A stretch of DNA of 64,000 nt from Candidatus Rokuibacteriota bacterium (GTDB lineage Bacteria > Methylomirabilota > Methylomirabilia > Rokubacteriales > CSP1-6): assembly GCA_016184125.1 (NCBI GenBank), contig JACPDG010000037.1:107502-171501 (forward strand), read 5' to 3'. Both the position numbers and the translations under genes were made by a program. Under the pieces are notes generated by a model. The model was given only the letters and a program-made list of their open reading frames with translations, made no database searches and was not told the DNA's origin. Positions 38,756 through 59,781 of this stretch are shown one piece after another (the first letter of the stretch is position 1; each line of letters begins with the position of its first letter).

Positions 38756-38757
38756 GC

Positions 38758-42456: not shown

Positions 42457-43696
42457 AGCCCCGGCCCGCGGGGGCGACGAGGTCATCGACTTCCCGCTCT
42501 GCCGGGACCCGCGCCACGAGGCCGCGATCCGGCGCGTGCTCGTGCGCTGCCTCGACGTCGTGCAGGAGCGGCTCGGCTCGGACAAGCTCGTAGCGCTCGT
42601 GCTGACCGGCAGCTTCGCGCGCGGCGAGGGGAGCGTCATGAGCGGCGAGCGCGTGCCGCGCGTGCTCGGCGACATCGAGTTCCTCGCCGTGTTGCCGGGC
42701 GAGGTCGACTTCCACCGGCTCCGCGGCTCCTTCCCCGCGTGGAGCGAAGAGGCGAGCCGGCTCGCGAGCGACGAGGTGCGTGTCGACATCGAGTTCGGCC
42801 CCGTCGAGATCGGCTATCTCGCGCGGCGCGCACGGCCCTCGATCTTCGTCTACGACCTGATCCGCCACGGCAAGGTGATCGCGGGCCGTGCGGACATCCT
42901 GGGCGAGGTGCCGGCGTTCACGCCGGCCGACATCCCGCCGCACGACGCGGTCCACCTCGTCTTCAACCGGCTCATCGAGCAGCTCGAGGCGTACGACCGG
43001 GCCGCGGAGCTCGACGACATCGCACTCTGGGACGTCGCGTACCAGCGGACCAAGCTCGTCCTGGATCTCGCCGGCTCCGCGCTCGCGTTCCGGGGTCGTC
43101 ACGAGCCGTCCTATGCCAGCCGCCCCCGCGCGTTCGCCCGGCTGCTCGAGGAGGAGCCCGCGCTCGCGCTCGCGCTCCCGCCGGGCTTCCTCGGCGAGCT
43201 CGACCGGGCGGCACGCCTGAAGCTCGTGCCGGGCGACGGTCGGGACGTTCTGCCCCCGCACCTCCCACCCGCAGCGCAGCGCGCATGGGTCCGCGAGCGC
43301 ATCGTCGCCGGCGTGCCAGCCGTCGCCTCCGTGCTCCGCTGGGAGCTCGAAGCCTTGCTCGGAATGCACGGCGACCTGCCGCCCCTGCTCGCTCGCTGGA
43401 TGCGCCGGCACCACTGGACGCGCCGGGCCTGGGACTGGACGAAGGTCGCGCTGCACCCGGTGCCGGCGCCCGTGCCGCTCGCGCGCATCCGCGCCGCCCG
43501 GCGCGCCGTCACGTCGACGCCGCGCGCGCTCCTCTACACGGCCGGCGCGCTCGCGTACCTGAACCTGCATCGCCCCACCGCCCGCCCGTCGGCGATCGCA
43601 CGGCTGCTGTTCGTGCGGCGCGCGGCACGCCGAGACCCGGCCGCGCAGCGGCAGACGATCACGTTGCTCTGGCGGTGGTGCGTGCGCAACACCTGA
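42434..43696 (+). CDS. Hypothetical protein with a Pol-beta-like nucleotidyltransferase motif
   Basis: GSFARGEG..S...D.EF region near the N-terminus, the rest unassigned. GTG start overlapping the udk stop. Its position inside the EPS operon is notable. Confidence 0.45.
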   Translation: MPADSLRRAPARGGDEVIDFPLCRDPRHEAAIRRVLVRCLDVVQERLGSDKLVALVLTGSFARGEGSVMSGERVPRVLGDIEFLAVLPGEVDFHRLRGSFPAWSEEASRLASDEVRVDIEFGPVEIGYLARRARPSIFVYDLIRHGKVIAGRADILGEVPAFTPADIPPHDAVHLVFNRLIEQLEAYDRAAELDDIALWDVAYQRTKLVLDLAGSALAFRGRHEPSYASRPRAFARLLEEEPALALALPPGFLGELDRAARLKLVPGDGRDVLPPHLPPAAQRAWVRERIVAGVPAVASVLRWELEALLGMHGDLPPLLARWMRRHHWTRRAWDWTKVALHPVPAPVPLARIRAARRAVTSTPRALLYTAGALAYLNLHRPTARPSAIARLLFVRRAARRDPAAQRQTITLLWRWCVRNT

Positions 43697-43706
43697 GGAC
43701 TCCCGA

Positions 43707-44990: not shown

Positions 44991-46159
44991 GCCCGATCCG
45001 CCTGCTCTTCGTCCTCACGTCCGCGGTGCGTGGCGGCGTGGAAGAGGTCGTCCTGGCGCTCGCGACCCGCCTCGATCGCTCGGAATTCCGGGTCGCGATC
45101 GCCGCGCCCGCGACGCTGCTCGACGCGTTCGCCGCGGACCTCGCGCGGCATCCCGTCGACACGCTCCCCGTCGACGCCGAGAGCTGGCTCAGACGCGCCG
45201 AGGTGGACCGCTTCGCGCGCTTCCTTCGCGCCTGGCGTCCGGAGATCGTGAACCCCCACTTGTTCCGGTCGACGCTCGTGTCCGTCCCGCTCGCCCGCTG
45301 GCACGGCGTCCCCGCGATCGTCGAGACGTACCACGGCCGGGAAGGCTGGCGACAGGACCGGCTCAGTTCGAGCCACGATCGAGCGCCCGGGCGCTCGATC
45401 GTGGCTCGAACTCTCGGCGCGTCGTTCGCACTCGACCGCGCGATGAGCCACCTCATCGATCGCGTCATCGCCGTATCGGAGGCGGCTCGTGACTTTCTCG
45501 TCCACGGCAAGGGGTACGCGGCCCGCAAGGTGGTCGTCGTCCCGAACGGCCGCGATCTCACGACGTTCACGCCCGGCGTGCACCGCGAGCAGATCAGGAA
45601 GGAGCTCGGGCTCGACGGCTCGGTCCCCATCGCCGGCGTCGTCGGCCGCCTCGAGATGCAGAAGGGCCACGCCTACCTCCTCGAGGCGTGGCCCGCGGTG
45701 CTCGCCGAGCTGCCCGACGCTCGGCTCGTGCTCGCCGGCGATGGCAGCCTGCGCGACGCGCTCGTGCAGAAGGCAGGTGCGCTCGGCATCGCCGACCGCG
45801 TGATCTTCCTCGGCTTCCGGCCGGACGTGCCCCGCGTCCTCGACGCGATCGACGTCCTGGCGCTGCCGTCCCTCTACGAAGGCATGCCGCTGACGGCGAT
45901 CGAGGCGGCCGCGATGGCGCGTCCCGTCGTCGCCACCGCGGTGGACGGCACGGTGGAGGTCGTGCGCGACGGGGTGACCGGCTCGCTCGTTCCGCCCGGC
46001 GATCCACCCGCACTCGCACGGGCGCTGACCGCGATCCTCGGTGATCCCCCCCGAGCCGCGCGCATGGGGGCGTCCGGACGCGCCTGGGCGTGCGAGCGCT
46101 TCGACCTGGACCGGCAGGTGGAAGCGACCGCGCGGGTCTACCGGAGCGCTCTGGCATGA
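44987..46159 (+). CDS. Glycosyltransferase family 1 (GT4-type), EPS locus
   Basis: GTG overlapping the upstream stop. GT1 C-terminal motifs (GRLE.QKG, LPSLYEG.P....EA.A) are present. It carries a 16-aa in-frame insert encoded by a 48-nt palindrome. Confidence 0.85.
   Translation: MSPIRLLFVLTSAVRGGVEEVVLALATRLDRSEFRVAIAAPATLLDAFAADLARHPVDTLPVDAESWLRRAEVDRFARFLRAWRPEIVNPHLFRSTLVSVPLARWHGVPAIVETYHGREGWRQDRLSSSHDRAPGRSIVARTLGASFALDRAMSHLIDRVIAVSEAARDFLVHGKGYAARKVVVVPNGRDLTTFTPGVHREQIRKELGLDGSVPIAGVVGRLEMQKGHAYLLEAWPAVLAELPDARLVLAGDGSLRDALVQKAGALGIADRVIFLGFRPDVPRVLDAIDVLALPSLYEGMPLTAIEAAAMARPVVATAVDGTVEVVRDGVTGSLVPPGDPPALARALTAILGDPPRAARMGASGRAWACERFDLDRQVEATARVYRSALA
45365..45412. repeat. 48-nt perfect palindrome (AGTTCGAGC-N30-GCTCGAACT) inserted in-frame in the GT1 gene
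   Basis: Verified self-reverse-complementary. It has the same length and 9-nt ends as the element at 796-843 and encodes SSSHDRAPGRSIVART within the ORF. Confidence 0.9.
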
Positions 46160-47553
46160 GTGAACCGCTGTTCTGGCTCGCCGCGCTGCTGCTCGCGTAC
46201 ACGTGGGCCGGCTACCCGCTCGTGCTGGGTCTCGTCACGCGTCGCGCGCGCCCGCGTCGACGTGAGCTCATGGGGGGATTGTCGATGCCCCCGACACCCT
46301 TACGAAGGGGGCTCACGCCCCCCTCGTCCCCCGGCCCCGCGCTCGGAGCGCCCCGGGGGGGGCGCGCGGACGCACCCGTGCGGTGCGCGGACGCACCCGT
46401 GCGGTGCGCGGACGCACCCGTGCGGTGCGCGGACGCACCCGTGGTGCGCGGACGCACCCGACAAAGCCGTGGCGCTCCTCGATCACCCGATTCGCTCTCA
46501 CGCCGCCGGACGTGCCCGCGAGTCAGCGTGATCGTCGCCGCGTACAACGAGGGCGGGTGCATCGCCGGCAAGATCCGCAGCACGTTCCAGCAGCGGTACC
46601 CCTGGGACTGCCTCGAGCTCATCGTCGTTTCCGACGGCTCGACCGATGGAACGGACGATGTCGTGAAGCGGTATCCGGACCCGCGCGTGAAGCTGATCCG
46701 GCAGGAGCCCCGCAGCGGGAAGTCGGTGGCCCTGAACCGGGGCGTCGCCGCCGCGCGCGGCGACGTCCTCGTCTTCACGGACGCGAACGCCGTGTTCGCG
46801 CCCGGCGCGATCGCGCGCCTCGCGGCGCCGTTCGACGACCGGCGGGTCGGCCTCGTCTCGGGACAAGGCCTCTACGCGTCCGGCGCGGCCGATGCCCGCG
46901 CGGTGTCGAACGGCTACGTCCGCTTCGAGGCGTTCCTCAAGCGTGGCGAGGCCGCGCTCGGCTTCGTCGCCGGGGCGGACGGGGCGATCTACGCGTTGCG
47001 GCGCGAGCTGTATCGCGAGCTGCACGGCGCGCAGGTGAACGACCTCCTGCACCCCGTCCAGGCGGCGCTGGCCGGGACCCTGTGCCGCTTCGATCCGAAG
47101 GCGTTCACCCTCGAGCCGCCGTCGCGCGGGGGCAGCCAGGAGTTCAGCCGGCACGTGCGGATCATCGCGCAGGGAGTCCACATCGTGCGCGAGTGGCTCC
47201 CCCGACTCGTCGCCGCGCGCCGCTGGCGCGCCGTGTGGATGCTCGTGTCGCACCGCATGCTCCGCTGGGTGACCGCGCCGTCGCTCGGCGTGATGCTGCT
47301 CGCGAACGCGCGACTCGCCGGCGGTGACACGTTCTACGCCATCACGCTGGCCGGACAGGGTCTGTTCTACGCGACGGCGCTCACCGGGTACCTCGCCGAG
47401 CGGCTCGGCGTCCACCTCGGGCCCCTCGCAATTCCGTACTACTTCTGCACGGTCGCAGCCGCCGGCATCGTCGGTCTCGCCCGGTTCGCGCGGCGCGGCG
47501 CCGAGAGCGTCTGGGCACCCCGGGGGCACGCCGCCGTGTCGAAGCGTGCATGA
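46156..47553 (+). CDS. Glycosyltransferase family 2 with an in-frame ~88-aa repeat-element insertion
   Basis: N-terminal TM helix (LFWLAALLLAYTWAGYPLVLGL), then the repeat-encoded segment, then the GT2 core (VSVIVAAYNE, VVSDGSTDGT, DAN). The frame is maintained throughout. Confidence 0.7.
   Translation: MSEPLFWLAALLLAYTWAGYPLVLGLVTRRARPRRRELMGGLSMPPTPLRRGLTPPSSPGPALGAPRGGRADAPVRCADAPVRCADAPVRCADAPVVRGRTRQSRGAPRSPDSLSRRRTCPRVSVIVAAYNEGGCIAGKIRSTFQQRYPWDCLELIVVSDGSTDGTDDVVKRYPDPRVKLIRQEPRSGKSVALNRGVAAARGDVLVFTDANAVFAPGAIARLAAPFDDRRVGLVSGQGLYASGAADARAVSNGYVRFEAFLKRGEAALGFVAGADGAIYALRRELYRELHGAQVNDLLHPVQAALAGTLCRFDPKAFTLEPPSRGGSQEFSRHVRIIAQGVHIVREWLPRLVAARRWRAVWMLVSHRMLRWVTAPSLGVMLLANARLAGGDTFYAITLAGQGLFYATALTGYLAERLGVHLGPLAIPYYFCTVAAAGIVGLARFARRGAESVWAPRGHAAVSKRA
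46269..46505. repeat. Hairpin repeat family copy H with internal 21-bp x ~4.5 tandem repeat, inside the GT2 coding sequence
   Basis: CATGGGGGGATTGTCGATGCCCCC... followed by GCGCGGACGCACCCGTGCGGT x4, which encodes RCADAPV repeats. Confidence 0.8.
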
Positions 47554-48716
47554 AGGTTGATCGACACGGGGGGGAGCGGTCGCCGCGACCGGCCGCGCCC
47601 GGGGGCACGGCGCTCACCGTGCGGCGCATCTACAACGCCGATCGGTGGAACTGCATCGTCCAGGGCTTCCCGCGGTACGACCTCAGGCAAGGGTTCGAGT
47701 GGGGCGAGCTGAGGGCCGAGCAGCGCTGGCGTCCCGTCCGGTTCGCGGTCTTGCGTGACGCGGAACCGGTCGCCGCGTGCGCGGTGCTCTGCCGCGCGAT
47801 CCCCGGCGCGGGCGGCATCCTCTATGTCCCGCGGGGGCCGCTGTTCCGGTCCGACGTTCCCGCCGGTCTCGATCGCGTCCTCGAAGAGCTGAGGGCGCTC
47901 GGTCGGCGCACGCGCGCGATCGCCGTCCGGATCAGCCCGCCCGTGCCGATGGACGACACCGACAGCATCGCGTGCCTCGACCGCAGCGCGCTCGCGACCG
48001 TGCCGGAGCCCTGGACGACGTGGAACTCGCCGCGCTACGTGCAGGTGCTCCATCTCCGGCGTCACGAGGCGGAGCTGCTCCGCGGCGTCCGCCGGCGGTT
48101 CCGCGAGTACATCGCCGCGGCACCGCGCCGGCGGCTCGTCATCGAGCCGTCGGACCGTGACGACGACCTCGTCGAGTTCCACGCGCTCATGCTGGACGCC
48201 GGGCGCATGAAGGGCTTCCCGGTCCGCGATCTCGCCTGGTACCGCGCGCTCGTGCGTCACTACCGGCCGGAACGTGCCGTCACGCTGCTCGTCGCCCGCG
48301 AGCAGGACACGATGGTCGGCGGACTGCTGGCGGTTCGCTTCGGACGCAAGAGCTACATGCTCTACACGTCGGTGCGCGGGACCCTCGCGGAGTCCGCCCG
48401 CCACCACGTCGCGCCGGCGCTCTGCTGGGAGTACAGCCGGCGGGCGCGCGCCGAAGGATGCGAGCTGGCCGACCTCGGTGGCACCGGCGTCGGCATCCCG
48501 CCGCAGGAGGGGGACCCGGGCTGGGGTCTCTACCACTTCAAGGCCGGGCTCGGATGCTCCCTGGAGACGTTCGTCCACCTGCGCGACATGGTGCTCCGGC
48601 CGCTCCTCTATCGCCTGTTCCGCGCCTGCGAGGCGCAGCTTCTGCCGCCCCTGTGGCGGCTCGTCGCCCGTGCGCCTCGAGCATGGCCGGCGCGCCTCGT
48701 CGGGGCGGCGGCGTGA
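47550..48716 (+). CDS. FemAB-family (GNAT-fold) protein, exosortase-locus subfamily
   Basis: Acyltransferase fold with the LYHFK...C motif near the C-terminus. ATG overlaps the GT2 stop (ATGA). Confidence 0.75.
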   Translation: MKVDRHGGERSPRPAAPGGTALTVRRIYNADRWNCIVQGFPRYDLRQGFEWGELRAEQRWRPVRFAVLRDAEPVAACAVLCRAIPGAGGILYVPRGPLFRSDVPAGLDRVLEELRALGRRTRAIAVRISPPVPMDDTDSIACLDRSALATVPEPWTTWNSPRYVQVLHLRRHEAELLRGVRRRFREYIAAAPRRRLVIEPSDRDDDLVEFHALMLDAGRMKGFPVRDLAWYRALVRHYRPERAVTLLVAREQDTMVGGLLAVRFGRKSYMLYTSVRGTLAESARHHVAPALCWEYSRRARAEGCELADLGGTGVGIPPQEGDPGWGLYHFKAGLGCSLETFVHLRDMVLRPLLYRLFRACEAQLLPPLWRLVARAPRAWPARLVGAAA

Positions 48717-50377
48717 GCGCCCGCGGCGCGCTGCTCAGGAACACGTTCTGGTACGGCCTCGTCACCGTCGGCGGCCTGCTCACCGGCGTCGTGATGTCCG
48801 TCGTGCTCGCGCGCGGGCTCGGGCCCGCCCGAATGGGCGAGTACTCGTACGTGCTCTGGGTGGGGCGCACGCTGACCGCGATCGCCACCCTGGGCTTCGC
48901 GCTCGCGACGACCCGCTACACCGCGACCGCCCTCGCGAAGGGCGACGCGGCGCTCGCGTGGGGCTTCGTCCAGCTCCTCAGGCGGCGCCAGCTCGCGACG
49001 ACGGCGATCGTCGCGGCGATCGCGATCCCCGTGATGCTGCTCGCCGCCCCCGGGTCACTCCGCTGGCCGCTGGTCGTCGTCTGCCTCGCGCTCTTTCCCG
49101 TGGCGCTCGAGCACATCTACTCGCACGCGGTGTACGGCGGGCAGCGGTACGAGCTCACCGCGAAGGCGAGCGCGGTCAAGATGTCGCTTCATCTCCTGGC
49201 CGCCGTCACGGTGCTGTCCCTCGGCTTCGACATCCTCGGCCTCGTCATCGCGAACACGATCGGGACGACGATCGCCTGCGCCGTGCAGCGTGGCAGCGTC
49301 CGCCGCATCTACCCGCGCGCGGCGGCGCCCGTGCCGGACGACGCCCGCGCCGAGCTGCGCGCCTACCTGGTGCCGCTGTCCGTGGTCGTCGTGCTCGATG
49401 CCATCGTGTGGGACCGGTCCGAGGTCTTCTTCCTGAGACTCTGGGCATCCCCGCAGGATGTGGCGTTCTACAGTCTCGCGTTCGGGCTCGCGACCAAGGC
49501 GATGGTGCTCCCCGAGGTCGCGGTCGGGGCGCTGCTGCCGACGTTCTCCGCGCTCCACGGCCGCGGCGCCTCGGGAGAGTTCCGTGCCGTCTACCGTTCG
49601 GCCCTGCGCCACGTCGCGCTCGCCGCCGTCGCCATCGCATCGATCGGCGGCGCCCTCGCTCCCGGCATCGTCGGCTTGCTCTATGGCGAGCAGTACCTCC
49701 CGGTCGCGGCGCTGTTCGCGGCGCTCGTCTCCGTGGCGGCGGTGTCCTCGATGCGCCGCGTCGCCTGGTCCGCGCTCCGTGGCGCCGGAGACCGCCGCTG
49801 GGCCGTCACGGCCACGAGCCTGGCGGCGGCCGTCAACCTCGCCGCCGCCGCGCTCCTGATCCCGAGCGGCGGCGTCTGGGGCGCGCTCGCCGCGAACAGC
49901 GCCGCCCAGGGCGTGGCGACGCTGATCGCCTTTGCGGTGATGGCGCGGACACACGACTGCGGCTTCCCGATCGCGGCCGTCGCGAGGATCGCCCTCGCGG
50001 GCACGCTCGCGCTCGTGACCACGATGGCCGTGCTCGACGGCGAGACGCACGTCCTGCGCCTGCTCGTCGCAGGCGCCACCGGATTCACGGTGTACGCCGG
50101 CGCGTGCGCCGGCCTCCGCGTGGTCGGGCGCGCCGAGTGGCACGTCGTGAGCCGGACGCTGCGTCGCAGGCTCGGGGCCCGTGAACGAATCGGCGTGCCG
50201 AGCCGGGCCCGGGTTCGCCCCGGGCCCGGCGAACGCTTGGGAGGGGTGCGGGGCCATGTCGGGGCCCCGCATGATCTCGGACCTCGACCCGCGCCGGCGC
50301 CCAGGACATCCGGCGCGCCGGGGAGCGAACCGTTCACGAAGGTGCCGGCCCCGGCCGCCCCTCCGCAGGGAGATTGA
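48713..50377 (+). CDS. Polysaccharide biosynthesis flippase (Wzx/MOP family); C-terminal tail encoded by repeat copy I
   Basis: GTG overlapping the FemAB-like gene stop. About 12 TM helices. The last ~60 aa (..ARERIGVPSRARVRPGPG..) are repeat-derived. Confidence 0.75.
   Translation: MSARGALLRNTFWYGLVTVGGLLTGVVMSVVLARGLGPARMGEYSYVLWVGRTLTAIATLGFALATTRYTATALAKGDAALAWGFVQLLRRRQLATTAIVAAIAIPVMLLAAPGSLRWPLVVVCLALFPVALEHIYSHAVYGGQRYELTAKASAVKMSLHLLAAVTVLSLGFDILGLVIANTIGTTIACAVQRGSVRRIYPRAAAPVPDDARAELRAYLVPLSVVVVLDAIVWDRSEVFFLRLWASPQDVAFYSLAFGLATKAMVLPEVAVGALLPTFSALHGRGASGEFRAVYRSALRHVALAAVAIASIGGALAPGIVGLLYGEQYLPVAALFAALVSVAAVSSMRRVAWSALRGAGDRRWAVTATSLAAAVNLAAAALLIPSGGVWGALAANSAAQGVATLIAFAVMARTHDCGFPIAAVARIALAGTLALVTTMAVLDGETHVLRLLVAGATGFTVYAGACAGLRVVGRAEWHVVSRTLRRRLGARERIGVPSRARVRPGPGERLGGVRGHVGAPHDLGPRPAPAPRTSGAPGSEPFTKVPAPAAPPQGD
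50178..50272. repeat. Hairpin repeat family, copy I (inverse orientation)
   Basis: CCCGTGAACGAATCGG...GGGGCCATGTCGGGGCCCCGCATG. Confidence 0.75.
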
Positions 50378-50380
50378 CCG

Positions 50381-50425
50381 ATGCGCATCCTCGTCACCGG
50401 CGGCGCCGGTTTCATCGCAGCATGA
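50381..50425 (+). pseudogene. 14-codon remnant of an NAD-dependent epimerase/dehydratase N-terminus (MRILVTGGAGFIAA*)
   Basis: Rossmann signature VTGGAGFI terminated by a TGA that overlaps the exosortase ATG. Confidence 0.35.
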
Positions 50426-51282
50426 CGGCGCTGGCGCGTGTCTCTTCGCAGTCGATCGGCGGCACGGCCGTCCTCGTCCTCGGCGGGCTGCTGGCGGTGG
50501 CCTACGTTCCCGTGCTGATCGATGTGACGGTCGTCGCGTGGAGCGTGTCCTACTACTCGCACGCGTTGCTCGTCCCGCTCTTCAGCGCCTGGCTGCTCTG
50601 GCAGGATCGCCGATCGAGGAACGGCGGCCCACCTGCGATCCTGCCGGGCGTCCTCCTCCTCGGGATCGCGGCGGCCGTGCTCGTGACCGGCACCGTCGCG
50701 GCGAGCCTCACGCTTCGCGCGCTGTCGATCGTCCCTGGCGCGTTCGGCATCGCACTCCTGACGGCCGGCCGCGCCGGCACACGCGCGAGCGCCTTCCCGA
50801 TCGGGTTCCTGGTGCTGATGGTCCCGCTGCCTTCCGGCGCGATCCCGCAGCTGTCGCTCCCGCTCCAGCAGCTCGCCGCCAACGTGGCGGCGTTCGCGCT
50901 GAACACGAGCGGCATCCCGTCGATCCAGCAGGGGCTCCTCGTCCACATGCCGAACGGCATCAGCCTTCACGTCACCGAAGCCTGCAACGGGCTGCGCTTC
51001 CTGTTCGCCATGCTCGTCGTCGGCGTCGCGTTCGCCGGGCTCGCGGTGCGCGGGACGATCCGGCGCGGGCTGACCGTGCTCCTGGCCCTCGCGATCGCGA
51101 TCGCCGCGAACCTCGTCCGTGTGAGCGGCACGGGCGTAATCGCGTACGCCTGGGGTCCGGAAGCCGCGTCCGGGTTCATGCACGTGGCGTACGGGAAGAT
51201 CGTGTACGCGGTCATGCTCGTGCCCTTCGCGGCGGTCGTGCTGCTCCTGCGCCGCTCGAGCGTGAGCGTCACGTCGCGATAG
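50422..51282 (+). CDS. Exosortase (EpsH/XrtA family)
   Basis: Polytopic membrane protein with the conserved exosortase Cys region (TEACNGLR) and an Arg (R.L.A.A.A.N..R). Confidence 0.8.
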   Translation: MTALARVSSQSIGGTAVLVLGGLLAVAYVPVLIDVTVVAWSVSYYSHALLVPLFSAWLLWQDRRSRNGGPPAILPGVLLLGIAAAVLVTGTVAASLTLRALSIVPGAFGIALLTAGRAGTRASAFPIGFLVLMVPLPSGAIPQLSLPLQQLAANVAAFALNTSGIPSIQQGLLVHMPNGISLHVTEACNGLRFLFAMLVVGVAFAGLAVRGTIRRGLTVLLALAIAIAANLVRVSGTGVIAYAWGPEAASGFMHVAYGKIVYAVMLVPFAAVVLLLRRSSVSVTSR

Positions 51283-52046: not shown

Positions 52047-55000
52047 TCAGCGGAGCCGGTAGCGCTTGACCTCGTAGGGCCCGAAGCGGTCGGACAGGAT
52101 CGTGCCTTCGCCCGTGAGGCGCGTGGCGTCGCCGGTGGCTGAGGCGGCAGGCCCGAGCCCCGAGACCTCTCTCGCCGGGTCGGTGAGGGTCAGCGTCACC
52201 TGGAGCGGGCTCGACCTTGTGTTGTACGCGAAGAGGTACCGCGTGCCGTCGGGCATGCGCTTGCCGAGCATGCGGATCGCACCGCCGCTCGACTCGCGCG
52301 CGACGACCGGCGCGTCCGGTGCGAGCAGCACCGGCTCGAGCGCCTTGATCTCCTTCGTCACGGTCACGAGGTCCTGCCAGCGCTGCTCGCGCTCGGCGGG
52401 ATCCTTGACCCACCCGAGCCCGCGCGCGCCGAACGACCAGTAGAAGAGTCCCTTCGCGCCCTCGACGATGGCCATCCAGCTCATCGTCCGGAGCTCTTCC
52501 CGGCTCGGCCACCCGGCCGCCTTGGTCAGCGGAAAGTACTGGAGAACCATCCACACCGGGCGACTTCGCATGACGGCGTCCTGGCCGAGACGTGTCCAGT
52601 CGCCGACCATCGCGAGGTTGTTGTCGCCGCCCGGCTTCGTGATCGGGTACGGGTCGAGCCCCATGACGTCGAGCGCGTCGCGCCAGAGCGGCGCCTGCCG
52701 CTGCCAGCCGTCGCCCAGGACGCCGTACGTCACCGTGCCGGGCGCCGCCCGCCTGAGCTCCCGGAGCTGGCGAAAGACCTTCGGCACCATCTCCGCGGTG
52801 CGCTCGTCCATCGTGTAGAACCCGGCGAGGCCCGGGTGGCTGGCGAGCGTCCTGCCGACCCAGCGGTTGAGGGCGTCCTCGCCGTCGCGCGCGGCCGGGT
52901 ACCGGAGCTTGCGGTACTGCCGGTCGTCCTCGTAGTAGAAGTTCACCGTCTGCAGGTAGTGGATGCCGCGCGTCTTCAGATCGTCCATGTAGGTCTGGAG
53001 CGCGGGGATCGGCGCCGCTCCGAGCCAGTAGTTGATGAGCATGTTGATCGGCGCCTGCGCGATGCGCTCGTTGCCCCATCCGCCCCGCCCGCTCGCGTAC
53101 TCCGCCCGCGCCGTCGAGTAGCCGCTCGTGTTGTAGAGACCGAGGATGAACGCGGGCTTGCCGTGGAGGTACGCGACGTTCTCCTCGTCGTACCAGACGT
53201 GGAGCGTCTCCCGCATGCGCGCGGGCGCCTTCACGATGCGGTACTCCGGATGGCGAAATACCTCGCGGCCGTCGGCGCCCACGAGCTCCGTACGGACGAG
53301 GTACTCGCCGTTGGGGATCGACGCGGCGTCGAGCTCGACGACGAGGGGCGCGCGGCCGCGCCCGAGGGGCGCGCGGCCGCGCCCGAGGCCAGCGTCCTTC
53401 GTCGGCACGGCAGCGGTTGCCGGATGCTCGCGTCGCGCGCGCACGGTGCCTCGGCTCTCGTCGACGAGCGAGACGCGGACGCGAGCACCGCCGAGCCCGT
53501 CGCCCGAGGGGCGCGCGGCCGCGCCCGAGGGGCGCGCGGCCGCGCCCGCGTGCACCGCGACCGCGATGCGCACGGTCTGTGGGCGGTCGTCGAACAGCAT
53601 GCCGCGGTAGTTCGGGTAGAGGAGGAAGGACTCGACCGGCGGGCGCTTCATCGGGGCGAGCACGACGTCGTCGAACCACGCGGTGCCGTCCGGCCTGCCG
53701 TACGCGCCGGCGGTGACCCGGTACGTCCCGGCGTCCTCCACGGGGATCGCCAGGCGCGCCAGCCGCGTCCAGCCCGACGTCCCGCGCGCGATGGGCGTGC
53801 AGTGCCACCAGTTGATCCGCGGCCGACCGTCCAGGCAGAGCCTCACGCCGGTCCGGTCGGACGCCCCGCCGAGGCCTTCGCTCTTCACCCAGCCCTCGAG
53901 CACGTAGTAACCCGCCTCGAGCGTCACCACCTGATCGGCCGCCGGAACGTATCGCGCGGTCCCGGCGTTCGCGAGACGCAGCGCCGCCTGCCCGGACCGC
54001 GCGCCGGTCGCAAGCGCCCACAGGGTGTCGTCGAGCGTCACGCGCCAGCCGTCCACGGTCTTGCCGGCCGACCCCTCGAAGCCCGGGTTCTTCAGCACGT
54101 TCGCCGCGGGCTCGAGCGTCGGCAGCGCCGTCAACCCGCCCGGCTGGGCGAGCGCCGCGCCGGGCAACGCCACGAGCGCGGGGACGAGCAGCCAGGCGGC
54201 GAAGCGCGAGGGCGCGGACCCGAAGGGCCACTCGAGAGCCCGCCCCTCGGGCGCGGCCGCCGCGGGTGCGCTCGCCTCGTCGCGCGCGGGCAGCATGCGA
54301 TGCAGGACGATCGAGACGAACACGACCATCCAGAACATCTTCTCGTACTGCGCGCTGATGAATGCGCCGGACACCATGAACCCGACGAGCCCGCTCCGGA
54401 GCCCCTCGGCCCAGCCAGCGAGCTCGCGGCCCTCGCGGTCGCCGCCGACGCGTGTCGCGCGGCCGAAGGTCCGCAGCACCTGCCCCACCATGAGCAGGAA
54501 GACGGCGAGCACGGGCAGGCCGAGCTCGGCCGCGAGCTCGAGGTAGCTGTTGTGGGCGATGTACTCGCGCCCCAGGTCCGGCGCGTACGCCACGGACAGC
54601 GACTTGAAGTTCTCCGGACCGACGCCGGTGAAGGGCGCGTCCGCGATCATGCGCAGTCCCGCCCAGAAGAGCGCGATGTGCGCGCGGTTCGACTGCTCGA
54701 GGCCGGGTGGCTGCGGGCTCGTCGGGTCGAGCGTCGCGACCGCGCGCTCCGCGAGGCCCGTCGGCAGGATCAGCGCCGCGACGATGATCACCACGAGTCC
54801 CGAGACCGTCGCCAGGAGGCCGCGTCGCCGGTACGCGTACATCGACGCGGCGACGACGAGGCCGAGGAAGCCGCCGCGGGACGCCGTGAGGAGGAGCTCG
54901 AGCACGAGCACCAGCCCGGCGCCGAACCACAGCCGGCGGCGCCAGACCGTCGACTGCAGTCTCGCGATCGCGAACGCGAGCGGGATCACCAGCACGAGGT

Positions 55001-55457
55001 TCGCGGCGAAGTAGTTGGTCTCGTACAGGCCGGTACCGAGACGGCTGTCGTAGCGGATCGACTGGCGGAACGCATACGGGAAGACGATCACGAACGTCAG
55101 CGCGATCGTGTACACGACCCGCCGGAGGTCCTCGTGCGTCCTCACGCTGCTGGCCACGAACGGCAGGAAGAGCAGGAACGCCAGGTAGCGCGAGATCGGC
55201 AGGAGGCCGCTGCCCGAGAGCGCGCCGGCGAAGAGCACGCCCGCATAGAACACGACGAACAGCCGCGCCTGTGGCGACGACCACAGACTGCCGCCACCGT
55301 CACCGCCGGCGATCCGGAGGGTCGCCCACGCGAAGCCGATCATTCCCAGCAGCTTGATGACCGTGAAGTCCGGGAACACGAGGAAGCTGTCGGCCAGCTT
55401 CAGATGGGGGTTCGTCTCGAACGGCATGATCAGGATCATCAAGAGCAGGAGCGGCAT
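52047..55457 (-). CDS. O-antigen ligase/polymerase-like (Wzy_C) membrane domain fused to ~700-aa periplasmic glycoside-hydrolase-like domain
   Basis: The N-terminal ~420 aa carry many TM helices with Wzy_C features (SRGGFLGL...HNSYLE). The C-terminal region has carbohydrate-binding-like and TIM-barrel-like segments. Internal tandem repeats encode GRGRAPLGRGRAPL and PSGAAARPSGAAARPSG. Confidence 0.7.
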   Translation of the reverse strand: MPLLLLMILIMPFETNPHLKLADSFLVFPDFTVIKLLGMIGFAWATLRIAGGDGGGSLWSSPQARLFVVFYAGVLFAGALSGSGLLPISRYLAFLLFLPFVASSVRTHEDLRRVVYTIALTFVIVFPYAFRQSIRYDSRLGTGLYETNYFAANLVLVIPLAFAIARLQSTVWRRRLWFGAGLVLVLELLLTASRGGFLGLVVAASMYAYRRRGLLATVSGLVVIIVAALILPTGLAERAVATLDPTSPQPPGLEQSNRAHIALFWAGLRMIADAPFTGVGPENFKSLSVAYAPDLGREYIAHNSYLELAAELGLPVLAVFLLMVGQVLRTFGRATRVGGDREGRELAGWAEGLRSGLVGFMVSGAFISAQYEKMFWMVVFVSIVLHRMLPARDEASAPAAAAPEGRALEWPFGSAPSRFAAWLLVPALVALPGAALAQPGGLTALPTLEPAANVLKNPGFEGSAGKTVDGWRVTLDDTLWALATGARSGQAALRLANAGTARYVPAADQVVTLEAGYYVLEGWVKSEGLGGASDRTGVRLCLDGRPRINWWHCTPIARGTSGWTRLARLAIPVEDAGTYRVTAGAYGRPDGTAWFDDVVLAPMKRPPVESFLLYPNYRGMLFDDRPQTVRIAVAVHAGAAARPSGAAARPSGDGLGGARVRVSLVDESRGTVRARREHPATAAVPTKDAGLGRGRAPLGRGRAPLVVELDAASIPNGEYLVRTELVGADGREVFRHPEYRIVKAPARMRETLHVWYDEENVAYLHGKPAFILGLYNTSGYSTARAEYASGRGGWGNERIAQAPINMLINYWLGAAPIPALQTYMDDLKTRGIHYLQTVNFYYEDDRQYRKLRYPAARDGEDALNRWVGRTLASHPGLAGFYTMDERTAEMVPKVFRQLRELRRAAPGTVTYGVLGDGWQRQAPLWRDALDVMGLDPYPITKPGGDNNLAMVGDWTRLGQDAVMRSRPVWMVLQYFPLTKAAGWPSREELRTMSWMAIVEGAKGLFYWSFGARGLGWVKDPAEREQRWQDLVTVTKEIKALEPVLLAPDAPVVARESSGGAIRMLGKRMPDGTRYLFAYNTRSSPLQVTLTLTDPAREVSGLGPAASATGDATRLTGEGTILSDRFGPYEVKRYRLR

Positions 55458-55487: not shown

Positions 55488-56483
55488 TCAAGCTCGGGCG
55501 GGCAGCGCCCGGCGCAGCAGGGCCCGGGCGCCCTCGCGCAGGCCGCGCGGCCCCAGCGCTCCGAGCGCGCGCAGGAAGAGTCCGGCGTCGCCGGTCTCGA
55601 TGAAGCCGGTGAGGAACACGAACGCCGCGCGCCCCCACAGGCCCTGCCTGGCGTACGACCAGCCGAGATGCCGGCGCAGCCGGATGATCCCGCGACGCGC
55701 GGCGGCGGCGGCCTCCGGGTCCTCCGCGTGGCGCAGCCGCTCGCGGTGCAGCAACCGCAGCATCGCGGTGCGGCCGAACACCGCGTGCACGCGGTGGATC
55801 GAGTCGGACGAGATCCGGACGATCGCCACGGGCCGGTCGATGTACCCGAAACGAAACCGGCGGGCGAAGCGCACGAGGAATTCCCAGTCCGAGAACGACC
55901 GCCACGACTCCATGAAGCTGCCGACGACGTCGAAGGCGCTCGTGCGGATCGTGAACGCCGTCGGGAGCACCGGCACCTCCTCGAGCAGGACGAGGAACAT
56001 CTCGCGCTGCGACAGCGCGATGCCGTCCGGGCTCGCGCGGCCCGCGATCAGCCGGGAGAACACGGCGCTCGCCCGCACGAACGACGGCACGAAGTGGTCC
56101 CCGTCGATCTTCTCCACGTCCGAGAACACCGCGTGCACCTCGGGATGCGTGTCGAGAAACCTGACCTCCGCGGCCAGCTTGTCCGGCTTCCAGAGGTCAT
56201 CGGAGTCCAGGAACGACACGAGCTCGCCCTGAACGACGGCGAGCGCGGCGTTGCGTGCGGCGGCGGCGCCGCGGTTGACGCCGCGGATGGTCACCATACG
56301 GGGATCGGCGACCGCCCGCAGGACCTCGGCCGTCTCGTCGGTGGACCCGTCGTCCACCACGATGAGCTCGAAGTCCGCGTGCGTCTGCGCGAGCGCGCTC
56401 CGTATCGCGTCGCCGACGACCAGGGCTCGGTTGTACGTCGGGAGGATGATGGAGACGGCCGCGCGCGTCACCGTCGCCTTCAC
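55488..56483 (-). CDS. Glycosyltransferase family 2
   Basis: VSIILPTYNR, VVDDGSTD, and the DSDD motif (FLDSDD). Start GTG at 56483, or the GTG at 56471. Confidence 0.75.
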   Translation of the reverse strand: MKATVTRAAVSIILPTYNRALVVGDAIRSALAQTHADFELIVVDDGSTDETAEVLRAVADPRMVTIRGVNRGAAAARNAALAVVQGELVSFLDSDDLWKPDKLAAEVRFLDTHPEVHAVFSDVEKIDGDHFVPSFVRASAVFSRLIAGRASPDGIALSQREMFLVLLEEVPVLPTAFTIRTSAFDVVGSFMESWRSFSDWEFLVRFARRFRFGYIDRPVAIVRISSDSIHRVHAVFGRTAMLRLLHRERLRHAEDPEAAAAARRGIIRLRRHLGWSYARQGLWGRAAFVFLTGFIETGDAGLFLRALGALGPRGLREGARALLRRALPARA

Positions 56484-57262
56484 TCCCTGCCGCCCACGAT
56501 CGCGGCAACGGCGGGCGGCGTGTCCAGACGCCGGGCGTAGCGATGCGCCCGGCTGATCCACCAGACGTGCCCCGCCACCGCCCACCAGACCGCGAGGAGC
56601 GCCATGGCGTCGGCCAGGGCGGCGACGAGGGTCAACGCGTAGAGTCCTGGGCTCTCGAACGACAGCGCGAACGCCGCGCGGCCGATCCCGAGCGGGCTCC
56701 AGCGCTTCCCGGCCATACGCACCGGGACGACGTGACCGAGATCGCCGGCACCGAGCGCGCCCGACACGCAGGCGGCGTAGAAGCGCAGCGTGTCGCCGAC
56801 CGCGATCGCGACGGCGCCGAGCGCGCCGGCGGCGAGGAGCGCGCCGGAGCCGGTCTCGACCGCGGCGCTCCAGCCGACGCCAAGCGGCAGGCTGGTCTTG
56901 ACGAGCCCGTGACCGACCAGATCCAGGAACTCGCCGGCCGCCGACTTCCGGCCGGTGAGCCGCGCCACCTCGCCGTCGACGTAGTCGAGGAGGTACGAGA
57001 GCTGGAGCAGCAGCGCGCCGCCGATGCGTGCGAGCCAGCTCTCGGACGCGACGAGCGCGACCGCGGCCAGCCCGAGGACGATCCACGCGACGGTGATCCT
57101 GTTCGGCGTCGCGCCGACGCGGGCGAGCGGGATCGACACGTAGATCGATCCGAGGCGGTACAGCCGGTCCGTGATGCTCGGGCTGTACTCGCGGGGCTGG
57201 GCGATCGCCCGCAGCTCAGCGATCGAAGAGGGTCTCGGCACGCCGCAGGTCGTCGTGGTCAT
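56480..57262 (-). CDS. CDP-alcohol phosphatidyltransferase-family protein
   Basis: The D-G-x2-A-R...G...D...D signature is present (DYVDGEVARLTG...GEFLDLVGHGL), with multiple TM helices. Confidence 0.75.
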   Translation of the reverse strand: MTTTTCGVPRPSSIAELRAIAQPREYSPSITDRLYRLGSIYVSIPLARVGATPNRITVAWIVLGLAAVALVASESWLARIGGALLLQLSYLLDYVDGEVARLTGRKSAAGEFLDLVGHGLVKTSLPLGVGWSAAVETGSGALLAAGALGAVAIAVGDTLRFYAACVSGALGAGDLGHVVPVRMAGKRWSPLGIGRAAFALSFESPGLYALTLVAALADAMALLAVWWAVAGHVWWISRAHRYARRLDTPPAVAAIVGGRE

Positions 57263-57941
57263 CGATCTCCACCCACCGGAGCCCGGTGACGTCGGCGACC
57301 TCGAACCAGTGGCCGCCGGCAATGAGCCGCTGGAACGCCGCCTCGTAGTAGGCCTGCCGGCCGCCGCTCGTCCCGCTGCTCGCCAAGATCTCGCGCCCAC
57401 GGGCGAACAGTGGCGCGGCGCTCGTGCGGTCGATGCGTGCGATTCCGATCGACTCGGCGACGGCGACGAGCCCGGCGTCGAGCTGCTTGCCCACGCCGCT
57501 GACGTGACCACCGTCGAGCGCGATCTTGACGGCGTCGTCGTCGAGCGCGCGGCCGCGGTCCACCGCGAGCCGGGTTCCCGGCTCGAGCAGCGGCCTGAGG
57601 ACGGCCGGCTCGAACACGAGATCGCCGTCGATCAGCAGGAAGTCGTCGTCGACCCACGGCGCGGCGACGAGCAGCGACGCGAGCGTGTTGGTGTCGGCGT
57701 ACGCCGGGTTCTCGACCGTCGTCGCCTCGACGTCGCGGCGCGTGTCGAGGAATGCCGCGAGGCGCTCGCGCCGGTACCCGGTGACGACGACGACGGACTT
57801 CACGCCGGCCTCGACCAGCACGTCGAGCGTGCGATCGAGCACCGGCCGGCCCCCGAGCGGCACGAGCGCCTTGGGCCGGTCGTCGGTCAGCGGCCTAAGC
57901 CGCGACCCGAACCCGGCCGCCAGGATGAGGGCTTTGAGCAT
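57216..57941 (-). CDS. Sugar/alcohol-phosphate nucleotidyltransferase (LicC/MobA-like NTP_transferase)
   Basis: LILAAGFGSRLRPLTDDRPKALVPL signature motif. Confidence 0.75.
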   Translation of the reverse strand: MLKALILAAGFGSRLRPLTDDRPKALVPLGGRPVLDRTLDVLVEAGVKSVVVVTGYRRERLAAFLDTRRDVEATTVENPAYADTNTLASLLVAAPWVDDDFLLIDGDLVFEPAVLRPLLEPGTRLAVDRGRALDDDAVKIALDGGHVSGVGKQLDAGLVAVAESIGIARIDRTSAAPLFARGREILASSGTSGGRQAYYEAAFQRLIAGGHWFEVADVTGLRWVEIDDHDDLRRAETLFDR

Positions 57942-59781
57942 CCGGCACGTCCTTCACGATCGTCTCGAGGGCTGCGAGGAACGCGTCGCAGTGGCGCACC
58001 GTCAGGGCACCGATGTTCGCCACCTGGAAGACGCGGTCCGCGAGGATCCCCTTGCCGCCATAGACGATGTACCCGGCACGCTTCACGCGGTCGTGGAACT
58101 CGGCCGCGCCGAACCCGCGGGGCAGCTCGAGCGTCGTCAAGAGCGGCGACATCAGCGGCTCGGGGATGACCGGTCGCAGACCGAGCCGCCGGCATCCGCG
58201 CCGGAGCCGGCGCGCGAGCCGCTGGAACCGCAGGAAGCGCTGCTCGACGCCTTCGGCGAGCAGGTCGTCCAGCGCGGCCTCGAGCGCGAAGTAGAGGTTG
58301 ACGGCCGGGGTGTTCGGCGTCTGGTTCTGCTTGTCGTTGTACGAGAAGTGCTTGTAGAGGTCGAGGTAGACGCTGCGCGCGCGCACCGCGGCGAGCGCCT
58401 CGAAGGCGTCGCGCTGGCCGCAGACGAACGCGAGACCGGGAATCGAGCCGATCGCCTTGTTCGCGCTCGACGTACAGAACGTGAGCCCGTTGGCCTCCAC
58501 GTCGACGGGCACGCCGCCGAGGCTCGAGATGGCGTCGACGTAGGTCTCGAGCCCGTGGCGGCGCGCGAGGAGCGCGATCTCCCTGAGCGGGTTCAGCATG
58601 CCGGTCGACGTCTCGTGGTGGACCCACACGACCGCGTCGAGGTTGCCGCGCGCCATCGCCTGCTCTACCGCGGAGAGGTCGAACGGCTGCCCCCACCGCG
58701 CCGTGAGCGGCGTGACCGCGACGCCGAGGTGCCGGGCCATGGAGATCAGGCGCTCGCCGAACTCCCCGTTGGCGAGCACGAGCAGCCGGCGCCCGATCGC
58801 GGCCGTGCCCAGGAGCGCCTCGTTGGCGGCGGTGCCCGAGCCGGTCAGCACGACGGTCGTGTACCGGTGGAAGTTCCGCACGCCGAAGACCTTGCCGAGC
58901 TTGAGACGGACGCGGTTCAGCAGCTCGGAGAACTCCAGCTCGCGGTGCCCGATCTCCGGCGCGGCGACCGCGGCCTTCACGCGCTTGGCGACCATGACGG
59001 GGCCCGGGCAGAACAGCAGCTGCCGGCGCATGCCGGGCATCGCCGACAGCGCGGCCGCGCGCTCGGGATCGCCGAACTGCTTGAGCGCCTCGACGTAGTC
59101 GGACAGGAAGTCGATCTCGACCCACGGCTGGCCGGCGACGTCGACGGTGCCGAGCGGCCGGCGCACGGCCAGGCGCGTGATCGCGTCCTCGTACCACGCG
59201 GTGCGCTCGCCCGCGGCGAGCATCTGTCCGACCACGTCGAAGAGCTCGTCGGCGACGGCGGCCGCGTAGCGTGCGATGCCGAGGAACTCGCCGTGCGCCG
59301 TGCCGGCGGGCAACAGCTTGCCGATCGCGCTCACGTCCCCGTGCGGGCCCGTGACGACCTTCACCTCTTCCTCGCCCATGACCCGCACGCGGTCGATCGC
59401 CAGCACCGCGTCGCGCGGATCACGCAGGACCTCGGCGAGGATCTTGTCGTCGAGGACGAGGTCGCCGTCGACGACGAGCAGGTCGTCCCCGCGGCAGACC
59501 TCCCGCGTGAGCCAGAGCGAGTAGAGCGTGTTGGTGCGGTCGTGGAGCGGGTTGTCGACGATCTCGACGCGCGTCGCGAGATCGGAGCGCCGGAGCACGT
59601 CGAGCACGCGCTGTTTCGCCCAGCCGACCACGATCGCCGGGGTGACCCCGTGCGCGGTGAGCTGACCGAGGAGCCGCTCGAGCAGCGTCGTGTTCCCGAG
59701 CTCGAGGAGGGTCTTCGGTCGGTCCTGCGTGAGGGGGTACAGCGAGCGGCCCGCTCCGGCGGCGAGAATGACGGCCTTCAT
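57895..59781 (-). CDS. Fusion: LicC/PntC-like cytidylyltransferase + 2-aminoethylphosphonate-pyruvate transaminase (PhnW-like class V aminotransferase)
   Basis: N-terminus MKAVILAAGAGRSLYPLTQDRPKTLL. The C-terminus aligns with AEP transaminase (HHETSTGMLNP, SSANKAIGSIPGLAFV, FQVANIG). Confidence 0.8.
   Translation of the reverse strand: MKAVILAAGAGRSLYPLTQDRPKTLLELGNTTLLERLLGQLTAHGVTPAIVVGWAKQRVLDVLRRSDLATRVEIVDNPLHDRTNTLYSLWLTREVCRGDDLLVVDGDLVLDDKILAEVLRDPRDAVLAIDRVRVMGEEEVKVVTGPHGDVSAIGKLLPAGTAHGEFLGIARYAAAVADELFDVVGQMLAAGERTAWYEDAITRLAVRRPLGTVDVAGQPWVEIDFLSDYVEALKQFGDPERAAALSAMPGMRRQLLFCPGPVMVAKRVKAAVAAPEIGHRELEFSELLNRVRLKLGKVFGVRNFHRYTTVVLTGSGTAANEALLGTAAIGRRLLVLANGEFGERLISMARHLGVAVTPLTARWGQPFDLSAVEQAMARGNLDAVVWVHHETSTGMLNPLREIALLARRHGLETYVDAISSLGGVPVDVEANGLTFCTSSANKAIGSIPGLAFVCGQRDAFEALAAVRARSVYLDLYKHFSYNDKQNQTPNTPAVNLYFALEAALDDLLAEGVEQRFLRFQRLARRLRRGCRRLGLRPVIPEPLMSPLLTTLELPRGFGAAEFHDRVKRAGYIVYGGKGILADRVFQVANIGALTVRHCDAFLAALETIVKDVPDAQSPHPGGRVRVAA

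Follow-up and report, generated by a model that had tools for sequence, protein, structure and literature searches.

Why does a membrane protein of the Wzy_C superfamily, encoded beside an exopolysaccharide (EPS) locus, continue for about 700 residues beyond its membrane domain? The protein in question has 1136 residues and is encoded on the minus strand at positions 52047..55457 (stop codon 52047-52049, ATG 55455-55457) of a 64,000-nucleotide stretch of contig JACPDG010000037.1 (assembly GCA_016184125.1) from a Candidatus Rokuibacteriota bacterium. This whole stretch is called the window below. An original prediction, made from the letters alone, described the open reading frame (ORF) as a Wzy_C domain joined to a large periplasmic part resembling glycoside hydrolases (GHs), and its coordinates and description were essentially right. 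On the genomic evidence presented here, the protein arose in evolution when two neighboring genes, already coupled in translation, were fused. With moderate confidence, we favour the view that it unites a Wzy_C polymerase with a periplasmic module that binds and cleaves, or remodels, the nascent EPS.

The GC content of the window is 72%, so long spurious ORFs are to be expected, and three ORFs of more than 1100 residues, the target included, overlap at this position. The target frame has GC1/GC2/GC3 values of 0.69/0.51/0.94, and this codon-position pattern is uniform over the full length, including the middle and the junction between the two parts. Therefore, the minus-strand frame at 52047..55457 is the true coding frame. 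The Pfam match described below also confirms that this 1136-residue ORF encodes a Wzy_C protein. A Shine-Dalgarno sequence (GGAGGA) is located 4 nt upstream of the ATG. Between the stop codon of the upstream glycosyltransferase (GT) 2 gene and this Shine-Dalgarno sequence, there is a perfect hairpin (GGCCCCC-GAC-GGGGGCC, 55458-55490, minus strand), which could affect translational coupling or mRNA stability.

The protein begins with a polytopic membrane domain of the Wzy/WaaL (Wzy_C) superfamily, assigned by Pfam and hydropathy (residues 1-395, 54273..55457), with about 11 transmembrane (TM) segments. An Arg-rich and presumably cytoplasmic linker (residues 387-418, 54204..54299) follows, which corresponds to the C-terminal tail of unfused Wzy_C proteins. 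Residues 419-437 (FAAWLLVPALVALPGAALA, 54147..54203) are the signal peptide of the once separate downstream gene, which has been kept, and are followed by Q438-PGGLTALP. The module itself consists of four domains in the AlphaFold2 model. A carbohydrate-binding module (CBM)-type beta-sandwich, also indicated by profile matches, extends from an NPGFE motif to an FDDVxL motif (residues 439-604, 53646..54143). It is followed by an immunoglobulin (Ig)-like beta-sandwich with two disordered loops that bear tandem duplications (residues 608-744, 53226..53636). The putative catalytic domain is a (beta/alpha)8 barrel, assigned by AlphaFold2, Foldseek, and conservation (residues 754-1044, 52326..53198). 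The protein ends with a beta-sandwich of the type found after many GH barrels, for which there are also weak Pfam matches (residues 1049-1135, 52053..52313). All of these features lie on the minus strand.

The origin of this architecture is seen in related Rokubacteria loci. In five of them (L001-L005), a separate Wzy_C gene of 413-420 residues is located directly upstream of a module gene, with a stop/start overlap of 1 or 4 nt. The downstream gene encodes a standalone module of 676-686 residues in L001 and L003-L005, and an acyltransferase-module fusion in L002. The earlier expectation that ordinary proteins of this kind, associated with exosortases, have about 400-450 residues agrees with these unfused orthologs, and the target adjoins an exosortase gene. 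L004 and L005 are likewise exosortase EPS loci; L001 has the same syntenic operon, with no exosortase gene within the stretch that was read. In the 18 Rokubacteria loci with enough upstream sequence, the module gene is directly preceded by the Wzy_C gene, and none of the 21 fetched loci holding both parts was fused.

The junction retains the trace of this arrangement. The unfused pair reads …ALPASS* / MRAALRLAAF… across a TGATG overlap, whereas the target reads …FGSAPS-RFAAWLLVPALVALPGAALAQ-PGGLTALP…. The fusion point (…GSAPS|RFAAW…) lies just before the retained signal peptide. Standalone modules begin with a signal peptide ending in A-x-A↓Q-x-GGLTALP, and all four fused orthologs keep the Arg of the n-region and the A-x-A↓Q as an internal hydrophobic stretch, at residues 419-437 of the target. 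Fused proteins are very rare, and the original prediction was justified in calling the architecture non-standard for Wzy/WaaL proteins: four were found in a collection of 5.8 billion proteins, and they form one 50%-identity cluster among 150 representatives. They come from four assemblies, have 100, 87, 73, and 73% identity to the target, and share its architecture and synteny. A metagenome scan gave only relatives of at most 63% identity. The possibility raised at the outset, that the ORF is two genes divided by an unrecognized frameshift or stop, was checked against these data: the three further fused proteins, from separate metagenomes and 73-87% identical, together with the codon-position GC content, led us to reject a frameshift or a spurious ORF. 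One further candidate, an apparent CDP-OH_P_transf-Wzy_C protein (P0005), was not used because it is probably a frameshifted call, with a middle part that is rich in Gly, Ser, Arg, and Pro and appears to be in the wrong frame.

Neighbor-gene fusion has a second example in the related loci. In L004 (12421-14727, minus strand) and L005 (10785-13088, minus strand), a Wzx-type flippase and an exosortase are called as one protein of 767-768 residues (Polysacc_synt + Exosortase_EpsH). In the window, the flippase (48458-50377) and the exosortase (50374-51282), both on the plus strand, are separate genes with a 4-nt overlap.

The N-terminal part belongs to the Wzy_C superfamily, as had been claimed. 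Pfam Wzy_C (PF04932) matches residues 182-321 (nt 54495-54914) over model positions 4-149 of 149 with 59 bits, which exceeds the gathering cutoff of 31.7. Hydropathy indicates at least 9-11 TM segments and a 74-residue periplasmic loop (residues 232-305), which carries the conserved R238, S256-N257, H260, and H302-N303. Among 14 orthologs, R194, R210, R238, N257, and H302-N303 are invariant and H260 is at least 90% conserved. The protein thus has the polytopic topology, the large periplasmic loop, and the conserved basic and His residues of a Wzy_C protein. The assignment as an exosortase-associated O-glycosylation ligase was not supported. The corresponding NCBIfam model, PEP_O_lig_1 (TIGR03097), is the best NCBIfam match, but its score of 76.1 bits is far below the cutoff of 188.1, although the gene does stand in the exosortase/PEP-CTERM EPS context that the model describes. 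A hydropathy survey of all coding ORFs found no second Wzy-like polytopic protein in the window. Because the domain is the sole Wzy-like protein amid a priming transferase, a Wzx flippase, a polysaccharide co-polymerase (PCP), an outer-membrane polysaccharide export (OPX) protein, and glycosyltransferases, it most likely polymerizes the EPS repeat units, contrary to its annotation as a ligase.

Neither Pfam nor NCBIfam gave a match in the C-terminal 700 residues or so, and the nature of this part became apparent from structure prediction. An AlphaFold2 model of the module, based on a 60-sequence alignment, has a pLDDT of 90.3 and a pTM of 0.91, and shows in order a CBM-like sandwich, an Ig-like sandwich, a (beta/alpha)8 barrel, and a beta-sandwich. 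A Foldseek search of the PDB with the whole module returned only multi-domain GHs whose domains follow one another in this order, namely GH66 dextranase, GH2 glucuronidases, and GH13 enzymes. In a separate model of residues 745-1136 (pLDDT 92.1), eight beta-alpha units are present, as in the (beta/alpha)8 fold of clan GH-A. Its best matches are GH35 beta-galactosidases and the GH140 apiosidase BT_1012 and its relatives (5msy, 3kzs, 4qfu), followed by GH30, GH39, GH27, and GH13. These matches to the barrel and sandwich, GH5-like structures included, have TMq values of 0.60-0.65, a probability of 1.0, and sequence identities of 10-14%. The CBM-like and TIM-barrel-like features that had been suspected between residues 430 and 1136 are thus borne out by the predicted structure.

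Family-wide matches mark the first sandwich as one of CBM type. The CBM_4_9 model (PF02018) matches 42 of 60 close family members, with a best E-value of 2.9e-7; the target scores 12.6 bits against a cutoff of 25.9, whereas the family member P0173 exceeds it with 29.4 bits. The family profile also matches the solved structures of CBM70 (4d0q, 1e-4) and CBM61 (2xom, 1e-3). For the last sandwich, family members gave weak matches to Collagen_bind_2 and to C-terminal domains known from GH42, GH13, and GH27 (Glyco_hydro_42C, Malt_amylase_C, and Melibiase_C). Membership in GH140 was not indicated: the Apiosidase model (PF13204) matched 1 of 60 members with an E-value of 0.19, and Collagen_bind_2 matched one member with an E-value of 0.04, both well short of the cutoff. 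PF25839, which precomputed annotations list for three paralogs, did not come up with our local Pfam copy. By sequence, the module matches no known GH family.

Conservation was analyzed among 108 diverse family members of 30-45% identity and mapped onto the strands of the predicted model. The conserved polar residues gather at the C-terminal ends of the barrel strands, which is where the active sites of TIM-barrel enzymes are located. They are Y775 on beta1, N809 and Y810 on beta2, N839 on beta3, D884 (100%) and E885 (99%) on beta4 (nt 52803-52808), D930 (99%), D935 (95%), and Y937 before or at beta6, Q973 (95%) on beta7, and W1007 on beta8. Such an arrangement favors an enzyme over a scaffold that only binds. 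The end of beta4 carries Asp884-Glu885 where clan GH-A usually has Asn-Glu, a position taken from the secondary structure of the model and not from superposition. By the same mapping, the position of the clan GH-A nucleophile on beta7 is occupied by Gln973 and is never Glu in the 108 members; therefore, membership in clan GH-A fails in the mechanistic sense. Hexosaminidase families with substrate-assisted catalysis carry an Asp-Glu pair on beta4, and enzymes of the GH27/31/36 type carry a carboxylate pair on beta4 and beta6. GH140/DUF4038, the closest structural neighbor, is also reported to deviate from the Glu-Glu pair, with Asp187 and Glu284 (PMC4032388).

The module represents a large family of secreted proteins that are annotated throughout as 'hypothetical protein'. 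An exhaustive HMMER search with residues 430-1136 retrieved 2306 cluster representatives (50% identity clusters) with E-values of 1e-3 or lower, 205 of them at 1e-30 or lower, and most members have about 650-700 residues. In a word-indexed search, the closest relatives (55-63% identity) were 'hypothetical proteins' of Rokubacteria/Methylomirabilota with about 680 residues and no Pfam domain. Polytopic fusions are rare: 271 collected family proteins contained only the four Wzy_C fusions and five Acyl_transf_3 fusions, and the latter (P0202 and others) keep the same retained signal peptide. Distant homologs of the module in other lineages (about 35% identity) adjoin Wzx, GT2, or FemAB genes in four of five loci, which ties the family to polysaccharide assembly and not to catabolism. 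Literature searches turned up neither a fusion of Wzy_C with a GH nor an account of the module family. A GGLTALP motif (residues 440-446 of the target) stands right after the predicted signal-peptidase site and is near-invariant in standalone, Wzy-fused, and acyltransferase-fused modules. Many Rokubacteria loci also contain a second, larger paralog of the module (1010-1277 residues, P0006-like, about 35% identity) with Big_7/Big_13 Ig domains, for example at L002 939-4772, L004 1948-5184, L005 2304-5336, and L003 1-2762. It is followed by a small BiPBP_C-like protein and stands upstream of the Wzy_C gene. The window has a small BiPBP_C-like ORF (59916-60272, minus strand) and no large paralog.

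From these results, the following mechanism can be proposed. Loss of the stop/start overlap would have turned the signal peptide of the downstream gene into an additional membrane-crossing segment. As the Arg-rich linker is presumably cytoplasmic, the segment of residues 419-437 would carry the module to the periplasmic side. The Wzy domain would polymerize the flipped repeat units, and the module, held at the periplasmic face or released there, would bind the nascent chain through its CBM. The barrel would then cleave or remodel the chain, with E885 as the candidate catalytic residue together with D884 and/or D935 on beta6. Its role would resemble that of the dedicated hydrolases in other EPS pathways, in chain-length or quality control or in release; we infer both the hydrolytic activity and this biological purpose. 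The fusion would enforce 1:1 co-expression and co-localization, and the retained segment would act as an internal signal anchor or possibly as a signal-peptidase-I site (A437|Q438). The original prediction proposed that the fusion couples polymer attachment with trimming or length control, but the covalent link may be incidental: the fused proteins keep the signal-peptidase motif, and the module is in other cases joined to an acyltransferase.

Several observations weigh against this interpretation. None of the members of the module family has a known enzymatic activity, no GH-family sequence model scored above threshold for the module, and the global TM-scores to solved GHs are moderate, with a maximum of 0.65. 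The Gln on beta7 excludes the canonical retaining GH-A mechanism, and the catalytic residues were proposed from secondary-structure mapping and not from superposition. The periplasmic location of the module follows from hydropathy and the positive-inside rule and not from a dedicated topology tool. At the N-terminus, PDB sequence searches with the Wzy_C domain, both singly and as a 14-sequence profile, gave nothing useful, and the choice of polymerase over ligase, with TIGR03097 below its cutoff, was made from gene context. In addition, the occurrence of the module fused to Acyl_transf_3 in other genomes suggests that its link to Wzy may lack mechanistic meaning.

The simplest alternative concerns the ORF itself, which might be two genes joined by an assembly or sequencing error, or a spurious frame in DNA of high GC content. 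The three overlapping ORFs and the two-gene state of most relatives are what such an error would predict. However, the codon-position GC content marks the target frame through the junction, homologs exist for each half, and the fold of the module half is predicted with confidence. The four diverged fused proteins, from four assemblies and with identities down to 73%, share this architecture with the junction in frame, so an assembly artefact is ruled out and we consider an artefact of any kind extremely improbable. A more substantial alternative is that the fusion yields a polyprotein after a near-neutral loss of the stop codon: signal peptidase I would cut after A437 (…GAALA|QPGG…) and free a soluble periplasmic module, so that the fusion would function like the ancestral pair of genes and not as a tethered machine that polymerizes and cuts. 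We regard this as a real possibility, though one that falls short of being probable. It bears on how the two parts are coupled and leaves aside what each does biochemically. All four fused orthologs have the Arg of the n-region, an h-region that contains proline, as is typical of signal peptides, and A-x-A followed by Gln exactly at the cleavage-site position of the standalone paralogs, and a single-base change in the TGATG overlap is enough to produce the fusion. The Acyl_transf_3 membrane proteins fused to a module with its retained signal peptide, as well as the flippase-exosortase fusions in the same loci, which suggest a general tendency of neighbors to fuse, are in line with it. However, cleavage of an internal signal-like segment after 11 TM helices is not the default. 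The fusion has also persisted through about 27% divergence, which fits neutrality but equally fits selection for tethering.

It is also conceivable, though unlikely in our judgment, that the module is not a hydrolase. It could be a glycan-binding scaffold or co-polymerase that leads the growing chain from Wzy to the PCP and OPX proteins, or a transglycosylase that transfers chains onto PEP-CTERM proteins or another glycan, with the Wzy_C part acting as a ligase of the WaaL/PglL type. The Gln in place of the canonical beta7 nucleophile would be explained in this way, and so would the best curated match of the N-terminal domain, the exosortase-A O-glycosylation ligase, though it is below cutoff. 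The ligase name given by NCBI and the adjacent exosortase gene point in the same direction, and the module-acyltransferase fusion, in which the module takes the position of the periplasmic transfer domain of OafA, hints at an acceptor-presenting role. Against this, the near-invariant D-E pair, D930, and D935 at the strand ends of members with 30-45% identity point to catalysis. The locus already has a PCP co-polymerase, and it needs a polymerase, for which there is no other candidate. Furthermore, a simple C-terminal motif search found no PEP-CTERM substrate gene in the window.

Compared with the favored fusion of a polymerase and a chain-processing module, a bolder interpretation is possible, although it appears doubtful to us. 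The module family would be a new GH or transglycosylase family with a non-canonical catalytic apparatus that is dedicated to Wzx/Wzy assembly; in the fused clade, the module would stay tethered beside the active site of the polymerase, one polypeptide would both extend and cut the chain, and the 21-nt unit of the duplications described below would be a new minimal in-frame insertion element. An Asp-Glu pair on beta4 without a carboxylate on beta7, as read from the model, would fit substrate-assisted N-acetyl-hexosamine chemistry or an Asp pair on beta4 and beta6. If true, EPS length would be set independently of the Wzz-type co-polymerase, and a 21-nt hairpin unit would spread through the linkers and loops of Rokubacteria proteins.

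The two tandem duplications, which encode GRGRAPLGRGRAPL and GAAARPSGAAARPS, lie in the Ig-like domain. Tandem Repeats Finder detected 2.3 copies of GGCGCGGCCGCGCGCCCCTCG at 53501..53548 (site 1; GAAARPS twice, residues 638-651) and 2.2 copies at 53342..53388 (site 2; GRGRAPL twice, residues 692-705), both on the minus strand and 100% identical. Both duplications had been noticed before, but with a unit of 20 instead of 21 nt and with PS instead of HA as the residues preceding the first repeat. The unit GGCGCGGCCGCGCGCCCCTCG is common to both sites and is read in different frames, which had escaped the original prediction. The duplications occupy the sole low-confidence (low-pLDDT) loops of the domain, and these loops vary by insertions and deletions between orthologs. 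At the protein level, site 1 of the ortholog P0002 carries AAAHPSGAAAHPS and its site 2 just one GPDRAPL; neither duplication occurs in P0003 or P0004. Between orthologs, copy numbers are 2/2/0-1 for site 1 and 2/1/0 for site 2, and the duplication at site 2 is unique to the target among the orthologs. The slipped-strand variability suggested earlier agrees with these data insofar as copy number varies between orthologs. The sites do not have the character of a phase-variable tract: the 21-nt unit is in frame, each site has two copies, and only the length of the loop changes. The two 21-bp duplications are probably functionally neutral and add 7-residue units to disordered surface loops.

The unit also occurs outside the Ig-like domain. 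An inverted copy (22 of 23 nt) is located in the linker at 54238-54260 (peptide AAAPEGR, residues 400-406), and a 20/21 copy is located at 29411-29431 in the tail of a TatA-like protein. With up to three mismatches, the window contains five matches where 0.39 are expected, and none of 100 shuffled sequences reached five. The calculated hairpin energy is -8.6 kcal/mol for the unit alone and -23.5 kcal/mol for a tandem pair. An exact-match scan of 596 Gb of genomes gave 25 stretches, five of them in metagenome-assembled genomes of Rokuibacteriota (AR8, AR22, AR23) and partly as tandem pairs. The Rokuibacteriota copies are found in unrelated genes: a GT4-like protein carries the unit in its linker, and a solute-binding protein has it right behind the signal peptide. 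Outside the window, copies lie at about 7813-7854 of L095, 5975-6016 of L097, 2550-2570 of L100, and 3995-4015 of L101. A general Rokubacteria repeat was rejected: the other Rokubacteria loci contained no exact copy, and their 219 kb gave six weak matches against about 1.4 expected, five of them at one orthologous position. The unit looks like a DNA-level element specific to a sub-lineage, or like the product of template switching, for which linkers are permissive. A second array with a 21-bp period (46364-46460, 4.7 copies of GCGCGGACGCACCCGTGCGGT, 97% identical) is located in a non-coding gap of about 530 bp between a GT4 and a GT2 gene, which are directly adjacent in related loci, unlike in the window. 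It was set aside as a relative of the unit, since it is non-coding and matches at best 16 of 21 positions.

The gene stands beside a convergent EPS locus of the XrtA-like exosortase type (33318..51282, plus strand), and the window holds a complete XrtA-like Wzx/Wzy-type EPS pathway. The locus encodes a priming phosphoglycosyl transferase, a sigma54 response regulator, an OPX protein (Poly_export/SLBB), a PCP, an AAA ATPase, a BY-kinase-like ATPase, an XrtA-system deacetylase, a PRK-like kinase, a phosphodiesterase-family protein, GT4 and GT2 glycosyltransferases, FemAB-family proteins, a Wzx flippase, and an exosortase. Above their cutoffs are the XrtA-system polysaccharide deacetylase (325 against 276) and one FemAB-family protein (305 against 260). 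The PCP scores 265 against 279 with the XrtA-system chain-length-determinant model. The exosortase (50374-51282) exceeds the cutoff of the 8TM_EpsH model (151 against 105.6 bits) but not that of the XrtA model (174 against 208).

A convergent minus-strand operon ends, as far as biosynthetic genes are concerned, with the target, and its upstream genes (55488..59781) retain their synteny in fused and unfused relatives. They encode a nucleotidyltransferase (NTP-transferase) fused to a 2-aminoethylphosphonate-aminotransferase-like domain (57895-59781; TIGR03301, 307 bits against a cutoff of 361), a second nucleotidyltransferase (NTP_transf_3, 57216-57941), a membrane protein of the CDP-alcohol phosphatidyltransferase family (about 56546-57217), and a GT2 (about 55497-56483), all on the minus strand. 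This gene content suggests that the polysaccharide may be decorated with a phosphonate or a phospho-alcohol. A gene for a putative endonuclease of the Uma2 family (51341-51925, minus strand) lies between the target and the exosortase, where the fused orthologs have a gene with a response-regulator receiver domain. The window also has large intergenic tandem repeats at 24105-24290, 27962-28189, 61687-61914, and 63076-63172, with periods of 98, 102, 96, and 47 bp. They consist of 2-2.4 copies that are 80-98% identical and contain hairpin motifs of G-runs and C-runs; they may be elements similar to repetitive extragenic palindromes.

Chain length, release, and quality control are poorly understood in Wzx/Wzy pathways, and it is chiefly from synthase-dependent systems that dedicated hydrolases are well known. 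The fused gene and the overlapping gene pair are genomic evidence that a large unannotated family works with a Wzy-type enzyme. They give this family a concrete, testable function and make it a candidate new CAZy family. The fusion is also a natural construct for the study of polymerase-hydrolase coupling in the exosortase/PEP-CTERM EPS systems of abundant uncultured soil bacteria.

Compared with Wzy, WaaL, and PglL enzymes, including PEP_O_lig_1, the N-terminal 395 residues of the target are similar in their Wzy_C domain, polytopic character, large periplasmic loop with Arg, His, and Asn, and exosortase EPS locus, whereas the protein differs by an extra TM segment and the periplasmic module of about 700 residues. 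EPS loci commonly encode a glycosidase, and neighboring genes commonly fuse. Hydrolases and lyases of EPS operons include PslG (GH39), BcsZ (GH8), PelA (GH166), the C-terminal domain of PgaB (GH153), Sph3 (GH135), and ExoK/ExsH of succinoglycan. A Wzy-dependent promonan cluster has separate GH10 and GH16 genes (PMC11340318). The module resembles these proteins as a secreted or periplasmic protein of GH fold inside a biosynthetic locus, here in translational coupling with the polymerase gene, and with presumed processing of the self-made polymer. However, it is fused to the Wzy-like enzyme in this clade, belongs to none of their GH families, has a CBM-Ig-barrel-sandwich architecture, and has only a putative activity. 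GH140/DUF4038 (BT_1012; 3kzs, 5msy, 4qfu) and GH35 (3og2, 4iug), the best structural matches of residues 745-1136, share the barrel and the C-terminal sandwich, but the module family differs from them by the D-E pair on beta4, the Gln on beta7, an identity of 10-14%, and a biosynthetic instead of a catabolic context (polysaccharide utilization loci).

O-acetyltransferases of the OafA/OafB type combine an Acyl_transf_3 membrane domain with a periplasmic SGNH domain. They share their design with the target: a polytopic membrane domain that modifies a glycan is connected, by way of an additional TM segment or a linker, with a periplasmic domain for that glycan, but the target has a GH-like fold instead of SGNH and Wzy_C as the membrane partner. 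Rickettsia palindromic elements are short palindromes that are tolerated in frame within genes. The 21-nt unit likewise forms hairpins and occurs in unrelated genes, in varied frames and orientations, and in linkers and loops that tolerate insertions, but it is much shorter (21 nt, usually as a 42-nt tandem pair) and known in only a handful of copies. EPS-locus glycosidases, fusion of neighboring genes, and two-domain membrane enzymes that modify glycans are thus known themes, and the target is not a new kind of system. What is new is a rare, conserved fusion that reveals a partnership between a Wzy-type enzyme and a GH-like family, which is a modest but concrete finding.

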